Shown one piece after another: positions 4,626-46,558 of a stretch of DNA of 64,000 nucleotides. The position numbers were made by a program, and so were the translations under genes. The DNA comes from Octopus vulgaris. Lineage: Eukaryota. The notes beneath the pieces are model-generated. The model did no database searches and was not told the DNA's origin. It saw only the letters and a list, made by a program, of their open reading frames with translations. The stretch is from the NCBI GenBank assembly GCA_951406725.2, contig OX597818.1, positions 89,094,001 through 89,158,000 on the forward strand, written 5' to 3'. Positions within the stretch are counted from its first letter, which is position 1, and each line of letters opens with the position of its first letter.

Positions 4626-4825
4626 GTGTATGTACATATATATATATATATATACTTATATATAAATATATATATATATATATTCATACATATACATATA
4701 TATGTACTACTTTAACGCTCGGGAAGTGAAAAAGTCTATAATGTATCGAGCCTACGCTCTTCCACAGAAAGGAACACAGAAAGAAACAAGGAGAGAAAAT
4801 ATGTATGTATATGTATATATATATG

Positions 4826-4856
<31 letters not shown>

Positions 4857-4876
4857 AGGTATATGTATATATATAT

Positions 4877-4926
<50 letters not shown>

Positions 4927-5357
4927 TTATATATACATATATATATATATTTATAATTTTATTTATTAATGTGTAAGTATTGAATAAACTATATTACCAA
5001 AATGTGTTTTAAGAAAATATCGCCCACGTATGTATTCTTGAAAGTAAAATTTGTCTTGACAAATTTTTTTATTCAATTAAATACTCTTTGTTTATTTCTG
5101 ATGTTCTGATGATGTTTATATTTAAATAAGTATATACTGCTATCCTGCTAAATTACCGTTATCGCAGACAGGAAGAAAAATGACACCATATTTGTTTCTT
5201 TGTCTTTCTGTTACCAATTCTTTCTCTCTCTTTCCGTATCACTCTCTTTCTCACTCACCCTCTCTCTTTTGTTATATATTGCTCTCTCTATATATGTGTA
5301 TTTGTGTGTATGTGTGTATGTTGTTTATGTATAGGTATATATGTATATATGCATATA

Positions 5358-5392
<35 letters not shown>

Positions 5393-5395
<3 letters not shown>

Positions 5396-5782
5396 AGTGT
5401 CTGTGTGGTAAGTAGCTTGTTTACCAACCACATGGTTCCGGGTTCAGTCCCACTGCGTGACACCTTGGGCAAGTGTCTTCTACTATAGTCTTGGGCCGAC
5501 CAAAGCCTTGTGAGTGGATTTGGTAGACGGAAACTGAAAAAATCCCGTCGTATATATGTATATATATATGCGTGTGTGTGTTTGTGCGTCTGTGTTTGTC
5601 CCCCTAGCATTGCTTGACAACCGATGCTGGTGTGTTTATGTTCCCGTTACTTAGCGGTTCGGCAAAAGAGACCGATAGAATAAGTACTGGGCTTACAAAA
5701 GAATAAGTCCCTGGTTGAGTTGCTCGATTAAAGGCGGTGCTCCAGCATGGCCGCAGTCAAATGACTGAAACAAGTAAAAGAG
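5393..5782 (+). mobile_element. tRNA-derived SINE family A
   Basis: A/B-box head (GTGTGGTAAG...GGTTCAGTCC), internal (TA)/(TG) linker, tail ending GAAACAAGTAAAAGA. Near-identical to 43170, 53694 and 59555. Confidence 0.9.
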
Positions 5783-5799
5783 AGAGAGAAAAAGGAGAG

Positions 5800-5831
<32 letters not shown>

Positions 5832-6094
5832 TACACACACATGCGTGTTTGTGTATGTATGCGTAGATAGATGGATATGTCTAAGTATGTGTTTATATGT
5901 GTACATATATATTCATATGTGTATGTGCGTGTGTAGTAATAGAGAGGGCTGGTAAGCACTGTTCGATGAGAAACAGTTCTAGTATTGACAGATTTTTATT
6001 TTTTGCTTTTGAAATGGTGTGCTAAATTGATAAACAAAGACCATGTTTTAAATAAACAAGCCATATAACTGATGCTCACACCACGTTGAAACAG

Positions 6095-7010
6095 CCTTTC
6101 GTGTTCAGTTAAGTCCACACTGCTTCATAATAAACATTTTGCGCTCAAGTAGACACAGCTTCATATGGATGCTTTGTCCTAGAACGAACATTGATTCAAT
6201 ATCAATAGATTGCGCTCAAGTAGACATCATTTCAAAATCGGCATTTTGCACTCAGATAGACACAACTCCAAACCAGGCACTTTTTGTCTCAAGCACACAC
6301 ACCTCAGAATTGATGCTTTATCCTCAAATGAACATTGATTCAAAATAGGCTCTTTAAACTCAAGTACACACTGTTTCAAAACGGGCATTTGGCCCTCAAG
6401 TAGGCACCATATCAAAATTGGCACTTTGCACTCAGGTAGACATGACTCCAAACCAGACACTTTTTGTCTCAAGCACACACACCTCAGAATAGATGCTTTA
6501 TCCTCAAATGAACAGTGATTCAAAATCGGCACTTTACACTCAAGTAGACACTATTTCAAAACGAGCAATTTTCCCTCAAGTAGACACCATTTCAAAATTG
6601 GCACTTTGCACTCAGGTAGACATGACTTCAAACCAGACCCTTTTTGTCTCAAGCACACACACCTCAGAATGGATGCTTTATCCTCAAATGAACATTGATT
6701 CAAAATCAGCACTTTGCACTCAAGTAGACACGACCTCAAAACAGACTCAGGTAGACATCGCCTCAGCATGACTACTTTTCATCATGTAAACACTGATTCA
6801 AAATCTGCACTCTGCGCTCAAGTAGACACTACTTCAAACAGACGTTTCACGATGAAGTTAGGCACTTCTTCAAAATCGATACTTTGCCGCTCAAGTGGAC
6901 ACTACTTCACAATTGGCACACTATGCTCAAGTGGACACGACTTCTAAATCGACATTTTTGCACAAGAAAACATAAATTCAGAATCAGCAATATGTGCTCA
7001 AATCGGCGTG
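6095..7010. repeat. Minisatellite with ~36-bp monomers in a 180-bp higher-order repeat
   Basis: Monomer approx TCAAAATCGGCACTTTGCACTCAAGTAGACAC. The block AACCAG..CTCAAGCACACACACCTCAGAAT recurs at 6271, 6451 and 6631. Confidence 0.9.
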
Positions 7011-7127
7011 CTGCATCGTCGAATTCCTGTATTTAAAAGGCAAAGGCATTTGCCTGACCGCACAAACAGAATTGATCCGTTCTTTTCTTCATATATATGT
7101 GTGTGTTTTCGTGCGTGTGTGTACATG

Positions 7128-7160
<33 letters not shown>

Positions 7161-7217
7161 GTGTGTACATGTGTGTGTGTGTGTACATATATGTACATAC
7201 ATGTATGTGTATATATG

Positions 7218-7260
<43 letters not shown>

Positions 7261-7264
7261 TTTC

Positions 7265-7295
<31 letters not shown>

Positions 7296-7368
7296 CATAT
7301 ATATACGTATATATATACATATATATATATATGTATATATATACATACATACATATATAAATATACAA

Positions 7369-7451
<83 letters not shown>

Positions 7452-8542
7452 AATGTATGTATGTATATATGTTTCCTTTTCAAAGGAAGACAGAAAAAAT
7501 ATACGAAATTAGATTGTAAGAAGCTGAAAGATTTATCAGTGTTCAACAATAACACAGAAGCTTGTCATTTTCGTTTGATAACATTCCCTCAATGCTGAAA
7601 AAATACCAATATCAATCGTTAATTCAATTATGCTTTTTGTTTGTTTTTATTTTATTTTATTTCATTTTGTTGCAAGAAATCGAAGTAGGTCTGGTTGTAA
7701 AGAAAACAAATATCAGCCTGGTTTTGTTTTCTTTGAAAAAGGTAAAAAAATAAAAGCATACTAAACCTTCAGTTGATACAGAATAACTGTATAAATGTCT
7801 GAGAAATAATAACTCCTTCCAACCGACGGAATCTTCTTGGTATTATTTTTTCGAAAGCGTTGAATCTCGCTTCATAATTCGAATAAGTATCACCGCTATT
7901 TTAATCCTTCTGTATGCTTATCGTTGGGTGCCAATTCAAGAGTTTATTAAATTATATTTCGAATATTATTGTATATTTTGTAAAACAGTATATGTATATT
8001 GTGTAAAATATAAATTTTATTCAAATTTATAAAAAGAAAGAAAAAAAAACAGGTTCAGAAAACTGCAACAAAATGTAATGTTATAAACGGAAAACATTGA
8101 TGTCATCGCATAAACCGTATTACACAAATGTGTTTTAAGAAAATATCGCCTCCATATGTAGTCTCGAAAATAACATTCGTCTAAATAATTATTTTTATTC
8201 AATTAGATACATTTTTCTTATATTTCCGACATACTAATGTTTATTTATTTTATATTACATTTTTATCCATCCATCTAAATATACAGTTGCGTTCGTGAAC
8301 ATATAGATACTATTTAGTTATATGAAATAGTTAAAATATTTCAACTTTTAAATATCTAGAAATACAAGCCATTATTTACAATAAATTCTCCAAATGGAAT
8401 ATAGGTAAGTAAAATATTTAGACACTACACATGTATTGTGTACTATATCAATTTTTGTTAGGCAGTATTTCTAAGGCATTTTTATAAACACACACACCCC
8501 AAACCCGATATTTACAATACATTCTTAATTTAATGATATATA

Positions 8543-34159: not shown

Positions 34160-34502
34160 GTAGCCAGCCAGTAGGTGTCGCTTCCGACAATCTCTGTTCG
34201 ATGGTTTTATTTACTAGCTTCGGTGGAATACATCCACTTGTTTTCAATAATAGAAATATTATAATAACTAAAACCATCGAACAGAGATTGTCGGAAGCGA
34301 CACCTACTGGCTGGCTAAGAATGCCATATTAGTATGGCGATAACTATTATTTTCCGGGAACGCTGCCGCTGTTCTCTTTTAGAGAGACTTAGTTATTATA
34401 ATATTTCTATTATTGAAAACAAGTGGATGTATTCCACCGAAACTAGGTAAATAAAACCTTCGAACAGAGATTGTCAGAAGCGACACCTACTGGTCTGGCT
34501 AC

Positions 34503-34544
34503 GCTGCATTGAAAAGGGGCAATACCCCGAAACGCGTCTGTAGC
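34503..34544 (+). ncRNA. Type I hammerhead, U3-A8 variant (inverted copy)
   Basis: Read directly on +: gctgca ttgaaaa gggg caata cccc gaaac gc gtc tgtagc. Confidence 0.88.
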
Positions 34545-34728
34545 TGCCGGTCAAGTAGTGTGGAGCGACTGACCTCCCTTGTTCGAAGGTTATATGGATA
34601 CAGTTTGTGTATCAAATAGCTAACTTAAGGCGATGGCCTCATGGAGCTAATAAGCGAACAGCTTTTTTCTTATTTTTATAAGAATGCCATATTAGTATGG
34701 CGATAATATATATATATATATATTTATA

Positions 34729-36834: not shown

Positions 36835-38870
36835 TCATCTCGAACAGGTTGGCCCCGTTTTTCTCGAGCCATGCCTGTAGAGCTTAACCCGAACGGGTAG
36901 CTCTTCTCGATAGCATTGCCAGTCCAGGGATCTCTGGAAGTTGTCCATAGCTCCCAGCCCAAAGGTCATCTTGAACAGGTTCGCCCGGAGATCGTTGTCG
37001 TACTTCCCCTCCACTAATCCACTATAGAATGCTTTGGTTGTGTTGAAGTCGCTCAAGGCCGACCCGGTACGGGATAGTTGCTTGAGAGCAACGCGACACT
37101 CGCGGTGCCATTCGCCCTTCTTCGGCCTCTTTTTGATCAACGACTGCAGTTCGGTCATGGACACGAGCTGTAGTAAAGCGCGCCTCACAAACGACGAATA
37201 CACCTGTTCACCGTCGTCTACGTAGAGCCGGAGATGTTGCAGTCTCAGCGCGTGTCTGTGCATCATCAACCACGGCATGCTCAGCCCTCCTTTTAACGGG
37301 GGTTGGCAGCAAACGGATCACCTGACCATCGGAACGCATCCTTTCCACAAGAAGCAGAAGAGAATGCGTTAGGAACAGATTCCTCTCGGCTCATTGCCGG
37401 GCGAGAGTGACCACCCTACTCGTTATCTCGTTCCAGTTCTTCTCCGTTTGGAGTTCCGGACCAAACCAGACCCCGAGCGACTCGATCATTCCTCATTGCT
37501 TTCGTCTTCTGACGAAATTTCTAGAGGAATCGGAAGGGGGTAGGGACATGTTGTAAGCTTCTATGTATGTTTGTGTAAGTGGTTGTGTTGTTGTTTTCGT
37601 TGATGTTGGTTGTTGACTGTTTGTGTGTGGTGTATGTGATGTAGGAGAAAGGGAATCAGTTTCTGTATTGGCTTTCGGTTTTTCTGTTTCTTTAGTTTTT
37701 GCTGTTGTTGGTGGTGTTTTTCCAGGTGCTGTATGTTCATTTGTTGGTGTTGGTGTGTTTGGTTGTTGTGTTTCTTTTGTCGTACTCCCTTTGATTGTCT
37801 TCTGTGTTGATGGTGGTGTGGGTAGTAAGGGTTCTTTTACCTTTCATTTTTTCCTTATTGTGGTTGTTGTTCTTGTTCTTGTTTTTGTTGTTTCTTTGCT
37901 GTTGGGCAATCAGTTTTTAGGTGCTCTTCGTTGCCACAGTAACAGCTATGCCTTCTACCTTCTACCACCACGTATAGGTTATGGCCGTCTGACAGCTCAA
38001 TTTGGTGTGGGATGCTATTGATTGAGTCCTTATTTATTTGCATCAGCAAGTGAATAATTTTTCCCGACCAATTTTGTTGCTCTAAGGTAGCAATCTCCAG
38101 GATGTTTAGGTTCTCCTCCATGATGTAACAAATGGCAGACAACAGCCATTGTGACTCTACTTCCGGAGGAACATTTTTGATTGAGATTTTGGTCATACGT
38201 TGACCAAGGTACGTTGAATCAAAATTAGTTTCTCAGACTGTAGGGTGAGTGTTGAGAGTTCTCTTGCTTTTCTTCGCTGTTGAAGCAAACTTATATTGTC
38301 GCATATCTCTTCCACCAGTTCACGTAATTCTTATGTGCCCACATCGGACGCAAACATTTTTCTATCAGTTCCTGTGGTCGGTCTGCGTGTTTTCACGTTA
38401 ATGATTTTATACGCGATTGTTCTCTTTTGTGTGGTGTCTATGATATTTTGCGGATGTTGCGGGATGTTGTGGGATATCTATGATATTTTGTGGGATTTAA
38501 GCCTTCTTGAGTTAAGAGGGATTTTATTTGTTTTATTTGTTTTGTTGTGAAGTGTAGTATGATCTTTTTTTTTTGTTTTAAGGCTTCTGCAAAATATTTG
38601 TTTTTGTTGTTGTTGTCACTTGTGGTGGTGGTGGTGGTGGTATCGGTAGCAGAGAAGGTAGTTGTAGCAGCAGAAGTTGTAGTAATGGTGTTGGTGTTGA
38701 CGGCAGAGTTGATGTCTTTGGTGGCGGTGATGGTGGGTGGCCTTGCGGCATTAGTTTTGTTGTTGGTGGTGGTGGTGACAGCGGTGTTCAAGCTGTCAGG
38801 TTCAGCGCCTCGCTAGAGTTCCGCATGACTTGCGCACTGGCCACATAGTTTCCAGTCGCCATTTTCGAAA
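36835..38870 (-). pseudogene. Degraded Tx1/L1-clade LINE (ORF1 plus ORF2 remnant)
   Basis: ORF1-like TKISIKNVPPEV (RRM-like) and CYCGNEEHLKTDC zinc knuckle (37855-38196), with a T-rich low-complexity N-terminus. ORF2 C-terminal GGLSMPWL..HALRL and LPVRVKLYRHG. Most of EN/RT is deleted. Confidence 0.85.
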
Positions 38871-43970: not shown

Positions 43971-44340
43971 AGCCAGACGGGACGGATATTTGCACGAGGC
44001 AGCACCATTACTGTCTCGGCTATATCTGACCTAAAATTTTCAAATCATCGTACTCGCGCCTATTATGGCCGTTCCTAAATTTTGCTGTTGAATTTATTAA
44101 TGGTCTCTGACTATTTACTTTTTTCCCACTAGGCCGCTGGTGGCAAATAATTTCTGCTGAATTTTTTTGCCACCCTATATTGATTAATTAAGAATTTTCT
44201 GTTTAATTCCGAAATGGAATCTGCAGCTTATATTTGCTGCCGATAAATTTGGCGCGAGTACGATGATTTGAAAATTTTAGGTCAGATATAGCCGAGACAG
44301 TAATGGTGCTGCCTCGTGCAAATATCTGTCCCGTCTGGCT

Positions 44341-44744: not shown

Positions 44745-44918
44745 GAGAGAGAATATTAGAGGTTTAGTGCACTGGTGATCTAAATGAATAGGTACGCTGT
44801 GTTAGTGCTATAATTGGTCATCCGTTAGGTTCCAAGTTCGCTAGGGATCCACAGTAGGCTTCCGAGTCAGCAGGTATATATTAGACGAAAATCAGGTATA
44901 TATTAGAACAAAATCAAT

Positions 44919-45286
44919 GCAGGATGAGTGTCTCAAGTCATTTAGAATATTTAGAGTAAGGGGAATTTGAAGTAATTAATTAATTAATTAATTAATTAAT
45001 TAGTTCATTCGTTAATCAATGAATGTCTTTGAGCTGTTTCTGAGATATCCCAAGTGATAGGTTAGCATCTCCAGACACTGGGACCAACCAAAGCCTTGTG
45101 AGTGGATTTGGTAGACAGAACCTGAAAGAAGCCCATGGAGATGCTAACGTATCACTTGTGATATCCCAGAAAAAGCTGTAAGACATCCATAAATTAATTA
45201 ATTAATTAATTAACTAATTAATCAATTACTTCAAATTCATCTTAGTCTAATTAAATATTCTAAATGACTTGAGGCACTTGTCCTGC
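44919..45286. repeat. Fold-back with a SINE-A fragment in the loop
   Basis: Arms 44919-45073 and 45135-45286 include (TTAA)n. The loop contains CCAAAGCCTTGTGAGTGGATTTGGTAGAC. Confidence 0.8.
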
Positions 45287-45311
45287 TTTGGTTTTTTCTG
45301 TCCTTTCGCCA

Positions 45312-45349
<38 letters not shown>

Positions 45350-45516
45350 ATAAGGGACTAAAGCCATCTGAATATGGCTAGGGACAGGGCAGGGTGGTGG
45401 GGGTGTTACTGTTGCATTTAGCCCCAGGCGAACATCGACGTCACCAGAAAGGCTCGACACCGTCACGGTGCCCTAAACCTGCAAAGGGAGGTAATTCCCC
45501 GATGAAGCGGAAACCA

Positions 45517-45562
45517 CACACGGACCATGGTTTCAAGGTGTATTGCCTATCATCGGCGTGTG
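45517..45562 (-). ncRNA. Type I hammerhead variant (U4C core)
   Basis: CACACG-CCGATGA-tAGG caataca CCTt-GAAAC-CATG-GTC-CGTGTG. Confidence 0.75.
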
Positions 45563-46262
45563 GTAGGCCTCCGCTTCCTCGACGAATTCTCACTATGCAG
45601 GATTTCTTATATAGATTTTCAAGCAAAATACATTTGCTGATTTCGAAAATCTGTTCGAAAGCAATAATAATTCTCTAAAAGGGATATAGACAGTAACTGC
45701 TCGATAACATAAGGGACTAAAGCCATCTGAATATGGCTAGGGACAGGGCAGGGTGGTGGGGGTGTTACTGTTGCATTTAGCCCCAGGCGAACATCGACGT
45801 CACCAGAAAGGCTCGACACCGTCACGGTGCCCTAAACCTGCAAAGGGAGGTAATTCCCCGATGATCGGGGAATTACCTCCCTTTGCAGGTTTAGGGCACC
45901 GTGACGGTGTCGAGCCTTTCTGGTGACGTCGATGTTCGCCTGGGCTAAATGCAACAGTAACACCCCCACCACCCTGCCCTGTCCCTAGCCATATTCAGAT
46001 GGCTTTAGTCCCTTATGTTATCGAGCAGTTACTGTCTATATCCCTTTAGAAATTATGCTTTCGAACAGATTTTCGAAATCAGCAAATGTATTTTGCTTGA
46101 AAATCTATATAAAATCCCTTTTAGAGATTTCGAGCAGTTACTGTATCTTTTAGAGAATTATTATTGCTTTCGAACAGATTTTCGAAATCAGCAAATGTAT
46201 TTTGCTTGAAAATCTATATAAAAATCCTGCATAGTGAGAATTCGTCGAGGAAGCGGAGGCCT

Positions 46263-46306
46263 ACGCCGATGATAGGCAATACACCTTGAAACCATGGTCC
46301 GTGTGT
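46263..46306 (+). ncRNA. Inverted copy of the U4C hammerhead with shortened stem I
   Basis: acg ccgatga tagg caataca cctt gaaac catg gtc cgtgtg, with a short deletion in the 5' strand of stem I. Confidence 0.6.
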
Positions 46307-46517
46307 GGTTTCCGCTTCATCGGGGAATTACTCCCTTTGCAGGTTTAGGGCACCGTGACGGTGTCGAGCCTTTCTGGTGACGTCGATGTTCGCCTGGGGC
46401 TAAATGCAACAGTAACACCCCACCACCCTGCCCTGTCCCTAGCCATATTCAGATGGCTTTAGTCCCTTATGTTATCGAGCAGTTACTGTCTATATCCCTT
46501 TTAGAGAATTATTATTG

Positions 46518-46558
<41 letters not shown>

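Follow-up and report, generated by a model that had tools for sequence, protein, structure and literature searches.

A young non-LTR retrozyme of Octopus vulgaris with an off-consensus hammerhead, likely written into (TA)n by a Penelope-like enzyme

Introduction

Metazoan non-LTR retrozymes are dispersed, non-coding tandem repeats with a unit of 150-450 bp and one type I hammerhead per unit, according to the available text of the two main accounts (PMC7229834; bioRxiv 10.64898/2026.07.22.740005), and the octopus family described here is the same in all of these respects, with a GC content of 46.8%. For animal retrozymes, both mobilization by a Penelope partner and templates in the form of RNA circles have been proposed, proposals that rest on co-occurrence and sequence likeness (PMC7229834; bioRxiv 10.64898/2026.07.22.740005; PMC4209133). 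The axolotl hammerhead HHR_Amex2 likewise has U.U at the base of stem II. The octopus family differs from the known metazoan retrozymes in never having the canonical core. Neither a head-to-head arrangement of arms, nor a fixed long and a fixed short end, nor targeting of (TA)n is described in the available text of PMC7229834 and bioRxiv 10.64898/2026.07.22.740005. A literature search found no paper describing two-armed, two-ended retrozyme insertions, and none of the papers listed on octopus hammerhead ribozymes deals with this family, judged by title.

GIY-YIG Penelope-like elements share with the family an inverted 5'-truncated copy, a tail at one end and two internal starts (PMC8557442, as far as its available text goes; PMC11167929), as well as AT-rich or (TA)n targets and a hammerhead upstream of the 3' end. 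Their tail measures 30-40 nt against 44 nt here, and the retrozyme is without an ORF; unlike in Penelope-like elements, both of its arms can be multimeric, reaching 15 units, and the pairing of a long with a short end is nearly strict. Among natural hammerhead variants, U4C occurs in a viroid, U10.1.U11.1 is known, and U3-A8 has been found in several ribozymes and in a schistosome Penelope element (PMC3088659; PMC4209133; both in their available text). Unlike in these variants, U4C is here fixed in a whole expanding family and was reached via U3-A8 and U3.G8.

In L1 twin priming, two priming events on one RNA give rise to 5'-to-5' arms with microhomology. The retrozyme departs from this scheme in that its start sites are fixed, both of its arms can rerun the same sequence many times and a poly(A) tail is absent.

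This article describes one such element in a window of 64,000 nucleotides (contig OX597818.1, positions 89,094,001 to 89,158,000), which lies on contig C5 of a microsatellite-rich host genome of 2.8 Gb. The 359-nt unit found there is one insertion of a young, widespread non-LTR retrozyme with an off-consensus hammerhead, and the model as a whole, in which the enzyme of a Penelope-like element likely wrote this young non-LTR retrozyme into (TA)n, is held with good confidence.

Structure of the Insertion

The element occupies positions 45349-46519 and is flanked on both sides by (TA)n runs. It is not a single tandem array; two arms on opposite strands are joined 5'-to-5' at 45863/45864. Unit positions are numbered from the first base 3' of the predicted GUC cut, and the parts are as follows.

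45316-45347, (TA)n target, left
45349-45864, minus strand, left arm, unit 18-359 then 1-174, terminating at the short 3' end
45478-45516, minus strand, rod 3' strand, unit 7-45
45499-45505, minus strand, UCAUCGG, unit 18-24, a rod strand pairing with unit 300-306 and not a clamp
45510-45569, minus strand, complete type I hammerhead, predicted from sequence and covariation
45566-45601, minus strand, rod 5' strand, unit 281-316
45660-45703, minus strand, internal copy of the 44-nt tail, unit 179-222
45863-45864, 5'-to-5' arm junction, unit positions 18 and 20, with 1-nt microhomology
45864-46519, plus strand, right arm, unit 20-282, duplicated 178-359, then 1-222, ending at the long 3' end
46255-46310, plus strand, second hammerhead, with stem I lacking 5 nt, core at 46266-46272 and cut site after 46299
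46476-46519, plus strand, terminal 44-nt tail, at the right end only
46519-46554, (TA)n target, right

The 359-bp period given in an earlier note on this DNA is borne out, as is its long rod, whose arms CCUGCA/UGCAGG and GAAGCGGA/UCCGCUUC pair with probabilities of 0.98-1.0 in the computed fold. The unit is non-coding (GC 0.468, longest stop-free stretch 98 codons) and has no LTR. The right arm carries many small deletions and an internal duplication of about 100 bp, and the deletions at 45864-46519 may be consensus errors. A TATA-like word stands before the rod (45604-45640, minus strand; unit 262-280). Three arms start at unit 299, 30 nt past this word, and had suggested a transcription start there; this idea is unsupported, as starts at unit 299 with both upstream bases foreign number 3 genome-wide, which is about background when position 299 alone is counted.

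Family Size and Insertion Anatomy

The family is large and very young. At least 266 matches lie near 100% identity (40 of 648 candidates scored), and a search for exact ends that continue into (TA)n gave 741 long and 517 short ones, against 0 for the controls, so that at least 741 insertions are present, with arrays on many contigs. Mapping covered 36 loci selected on score and a small number of others; from contig C1 it took in the complete set of 58 exact long ends along with those short ends that were unpaired. Among these, 92 of 95 two-armed insertions combine one long with one short end, the remaining 3 of the 95 having one damaged end, and long-long or short-short combinations occur in 0 of 95; about 24 single-arm clusters exist besides. 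Array ends are fixed internal sites of the unit, 44 nt apart: one arm ends at 166-178 (about 178) and the other at 215-222 (about 222), usually in (TA)n, and the same long and short ends recur in subfamilies that are 84-88% identical. Junctions between arms mostly show microhomology of 0-4 nt (70 of 92), and the lengths of the two arms within an insertion correlate (rho 0.46). Target duplications, inspected at eight loci, are readable at L044 (8-9 bp) and L037 (12 bp) and unreadable in pure (TA)n.

Clusters of small deletions, seen in the right arm here and in single arms at L168, L174, L042 and L050, are what would be expected were the fold-back an artefact of sequencing or assembly. That explanation is the least probable of all those considered, given 92 loci with unequal arms, two different fixed ends, distinct flanks and target duplications.

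The family thus has a unit within 150-450 bp, one type I hammerhead, a GC content below 50%, no LTR and target duplications longer than 4 bp, and lacks the canonical type I core CUGANGA. By its sequence features it is a metazoan non-LTR retrozyme, for which cleavage and expression are predicted.

Two distant sister retrozyme families were also observed, one with the canonical core CUGAUGA (L227-L256; 3026 first-look candidates) and one with the U3-A8 core UUGACAA (L257-L286; 2078 first-look candidates). Both share the rod and the tail, and the TATA-like word is kept in all three families.

The Hammerhead and Its Core

The hammerhead of the left arm, on the minus strand, has a stem I with a UAC bulge, followed by the core CCGAUGA at 45556-45550, a stem II that opens with U.U, GAAA, a stem III of 2 bp capped by a palindromic loop, and GUC, and cleavage is predicted between 45523 and 45522. 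The young motif thus contains a 3-8 pair (C3-G8), GAAA, a UH cut site (GUC) and three stems. The stem I bulge faces loop II, an arrangement that would allow a loop-loop contact. Both copies had been described as one and the same hammerhead with U4C and a U.U base of stem II. The left arm indeed holds this motif complete; the right copy has the same core and differs in lacking 5 nt of the 5' strand of stem I, and it sits on the plus strand while the first sits on the minus strand.

Whether C4 and U.U are family consensus, or whether the family at large has CUGAUGA, was raised in the same note and is answered by a census of 357 family hammerheads from 116 fetched loci. Both features are consensus in the young family: C3-C4-G8 occurs in 329 of the 357, the cores being CCGAUGA (289), CCGACGA (40), UUGACGA (10), UUGAUGA (8), UUGAUAA (8) and CCGAUAA (2), with CUGANGA in 0 of 357. 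A canonical-core version of the young motif gave 0 matches genome-wide, and Rfam returned no hammerhead at the locus, either at the gathering score or at E values up to 10; its microRNA-precursor matches at the fold-back lie below the gathering score and were rejected as hairpin artefacts.

In a tree of 40 family rows (retaining 14 of 55 CCGAUGA loci) and 6 outgroup rows, built from an alignment that included the core columns, the cores succeed one another in ladder-like order, from UUGAUAA through UUGAUGA, UUGACGA and CCGACGA to CCGAUGA; UUGACGA occurs on an older side branch as well. The 3-8 pair is maintained across these five states. Covariation among 14 subfamily sequences gave three pairs with two-sided changes in the hammerhead stems and outer rod (12 cells; 0 of 500 shuffles), a count that is inflated by kinship among the 14.

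The substitutions themselves have precedents. U4C reduces hammerhead activity yet supports viroid infection, and U10.1.U11.1 is tolerated, U.U being the best-tolerated mismatch at that place (PMC3088659, in its available text). The literature search found no source on the activity of U3.G8. C4 and U.U at the base of stem II may go together. The combination was also seen outside the family, at L225 (7806, plus strand, and 4821-7983), L159 and L143 (78, plus strand), with the cores CCGAAGA and CCGAUGA; the former is the core of a minimal hammerhead in a two-armed Penelope-like element, and the latter occurs in an unrelated motif. Flanks of L033, L057, L115 and L220 hold abundant short repeats with hammerhead-like CCGAYGA...GAAA words and a weak stem II, which are candidates only.

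The Core Complement

The earlier note had proposed that UCAUCGG, just 3' of the ribozyme, pairs with the core and shuts off cleavage in the monomer or circle. UCAUCGG (45499-45505) is indeed exactly complementary to the core CCGAUGA, dinucleotide shuffling of the remaining unit sequence yields an exact 7-nt complement in just 1.3% of 5000 trials, 87.5% of cells in the clamp register are pairable across subfamilies (many as G.U), and complementary sequences are described as blocking ribozymes in plant retrozyme and viroid circles (PMC7229834, in its available text). Folding energies, covariation and junction positions all fail to support the alternative inactive conformation, which we regard as very improbable.

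When the circular monomer is folded, UCAUCGG pairs with unit 300-306 instead, as part of the rod (P 0.89-1.0 for six of the seven bases), and the pairing probability of the core with its complement in the stable fold is about 3e-15. The clamp, when imposed on the fold, carries a penalty of 20.5-20.6 kcal/mol whether the RNA is a precursor, a circle or a linear monomer, and of 15.3 kcal/mol at the most favorable nascent length during transcription; between neighboring units the penalty is no lower and the clamp equally rare. In the subfamilies the penalty rises to 22-36 kcal/mol, as computed for 12 of 13 rows, L032 being left out as it lies on a fold-back junction. The clamp register shows zero two-sided changes among the 14 subfamily sequences and breaks at two positions, a score that 500 of 500 shuffles reach.

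Nor is the complement conserved as such. UCAUCGG stays unchanged under the cores CCGACGA, UUGACGA, UUGAUGA and UUGAUAA, so that the motif is fixed while cores vary; the perfect match is seen only at the last step of the lineage and therefore arose late, as a by-product at the free position 7. The exact complement is uncommon but explained, because the rod 5' strand at 300-306 resembles the core. An origin of the perfect complement by template switching, in which UU became CC by copying UCAUCGG, is unsupported because CC first arises with CCGACGA. The array had also been said to fold back at this motif, which holds at the present locus (45863/45864, unit 18/20) and fails as a family rule: 4 of 184 junction ends fall in 18-24 against 58 in 10-65, and on these positions the motif was rejected as the cause of the fold-back. 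To judge from these models, the 359-nt unit is not an antisense-blocked ribozyme, and UCAUCGG serves as one strand of the rod in which the ribozyme is held.

The energies predict another off-state. In a model that leaves aside tertiary contacts, the complete hammerhead fold is 8.5 kcal/mol less favorable than the ensemble, and a slipped stem I, displaced by 2 nt so as to take in C3, lies 0.7 kcal/mol above the ensemble compared with 1.0 for the active register, these slip values being nearest-neighbor predictions of the same limited kind. C3 cores favor this slip strongly, and in 10 of 11 U3 sequences it does not exceed 3%. If any off-state exists, this C3-capturing slip would be a better candidate than the clamp.

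The RNA Template

If the U4C ribozyme is slow but active, three templates would coexist: ligated monomer circles, which would give pure arrays as long as 24 units; linear RNA left by cleavage, on which both arms would stop shortly 3' of the cut site; and multimers that escaped cutting, which would give mixed arrays. All three classes of array are found, and jointly they would fit a slow, active ribozyme.

The two arms of an insertion carry an identical haplotype. At L034, A303C is present in 13 of 13 covering units of both arms, and its 13 matches genome-wide are all at L034; rolling-circle reverse transcription round one ring would predict this pattern. A104G at L103 is, among the fetched loci, an array-wide variant of the same kind. 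Among arrays of five or more segments, and with positions 270-295 excluded from variant scoring, 33 of 42 are pure, that is, without a variant confined to some units. The source array of A303C could be absent from this assembly.

The remaining 9 of the 42 long arrays are mixed, several as though copied from linear multimers. The order of haplotypes is identical in both arms of L037, for which no source array was found among 40 scored of 1129 candidates; L172, L031 and L040 fit one linear multimer on which the short arm began 2-8 units upstream; and L046 and L061 have a variant in every second unit, as expected of a dimer ring. Later exchange between units is a rival explanation for some mixed arrays. 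Shared variant order in both arms, as in L037, L172, L031 and L040, also speaks for a dead or irrelevant ribozyme, with insertions copying uncut linear read-through transcripts and pure arrays descending from pure source arrays, and so do a canonical core in 0 of 357 hammerheads and the in vitro result that hammerhead mutants leave Penelope insertion unaffected, unprocessed RNA being the main substrate (PMC11167929). A private variant fixed in 13 of 13 units, which needs either a ring or repeated copying of one unit, argues against such a ribozyme, as do the covarying stems and a core that keeps its 3-8 pair through five states.

The positions at which arms stop bear on the same choice. Arms cross the cut site about 324 times. 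Their 5' ends are concentrated at 10-65 (58 versus 30.7 expected, in a range picked after seeing the data), mainly in the first pass, and in the contig C1 set the stop rate past the cut site drops 3- to 5-fold, from 0.6-0.8 to 0.1-0.2 per 100 nt, a fall that speaks against a dead ribozyme. In 18 of 92 pairs the two arms stop in one and the same unit and no more than 20 nt apart (4.7 when shuffled; 0 of 5000 shuffles), and the insertion at 45349-46519 belongs to this class. Where an arm crosses the cut site, matched stops occur in 6 of 71 arrays against 8.3 when shuffled, which is not above chance. An excess at the exact cut, whose absence favors a dead ribozyme, was not seen, only 3 of 184 arms ending within 5 nt of it, which is the chance level, so that cleaved 5' ends would need trimming by 10-60 nt. 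The stops at 10-65 are consistent with ribozyme-cleaved RNAs that were trimmed during joining, and alternatively with stalling at the rod. Taking both sides together, we consider a dead or irrelevant ribozyme unlikely.

Crossover and gene conversion are known to act on tandem and inverted repeats. Arrays could have lengthened once inserted, through unequal crossover and through gene conversion between the arms, in which case their purity and shared variants would be uninformative on the RNA template, and the core-breaking G8A that was observed in two adjacent units of a single arm of L040 is most simply a later duplication. Such growth is a still weaker contender for the family at large: 92 of 95 insertions retain intact outer ends and junctions, the arm lengths correlate (rho 0.46), and single-unit substitutions amount to only 0.092%, which leaves little time for homogenizing both arms.

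In the preferred reading the ribozyme is slow but active. The form of the insertions suggests that a Penelope-type enzyme likely makes two copies of the RNA at once, probably often from a ring. In its fullest form, the insertions would be the genomic record of rolling-circle reverse transcription by a Penelope dimer on one 359-nt ring, with one subunit starting long and the other short, into opposite (TA)n strands; the ribozyme would be kept deliberately slow via U3-A8, U3.G8 and C4 cores to let rings endure and multimers persist, with C3 newly adding the slipped stem I off-state. This fullest form is tentative, with chances that we put somewhat below even.

Probable Mobilization by a Penelope-Like Enzyme

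A Penelope protein cuts and extends both strands in vitro, and the Penelope tail is the interval between two internal start sites of reverse transcription (PMC11167929). The genomic footprint of these elements is an inverted 5'-truncated copy with the tail at one end and a bias to (TA)n (PMC8557442, in its available text). The retrozyme family has an inverted 5'-truncated copy, a microsatellite target and a 44-nt tail. A Penelope-like enzyme would nick both DNA strands of the (TA)n target, reverse transcription would start on both nicks of one RNA, once at about 222 and once at about 178, and the two cDNAs would be joined at their ends through 0-4 nt of microhomology. The near-strict pairing of long with short ends suggests two nicks served by two fixed start sites in one complex.

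A very young Penelope-like family (L207-L223) was observed in the same genome, with 781-aa frames for reverse transcriptase and GIY-YIG that are open at 16 of 20 loci fetched. Its anatomy is that of the retrozyme: the arms are inverted, and its two 3' ends, which lie in (TA)n, are separated by 39 nt. It was considered as the partner and set aside for want of sequence likeness, and a pattern search found no hammerhead in it. Comparison of the unit with the termini of Penelope-like elements (20 loci, two families among 6136 first-look GIY-YIG candidates) gave no likeness. L225 was likewise set aside, its 46-nt tail match being a neighboring sister retrozyme.

In the retrozyme family the Penelope footprint can be read directly from hundreds of near-identical copies, and the 359-nt unit offers a short substrate with two mapped start sites, which would enable direct tests of how Penelope makes the tail and inverted arm and of whether the ring gets copied. 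The five hammerhead cores in one scaffold form a natural series on how circular retrozyme RNAs escape self-cutting.

Neighboring Sequences

Several further features were observed in the window. A separate type I hammerhead with the U3-A8 core UUGAAAA lies at 34501-34555 on the plus strand and has relatives at L051 and L195. Broken reading frames at 36835-38812 on the minus strand resemble a LINE remnant. Immediately left of the insertion are two palindromic elements, at 43975-44330 (arms 100% identical) and at 44915-45295 (83%), and the middle of the latter matches a very common repeat.
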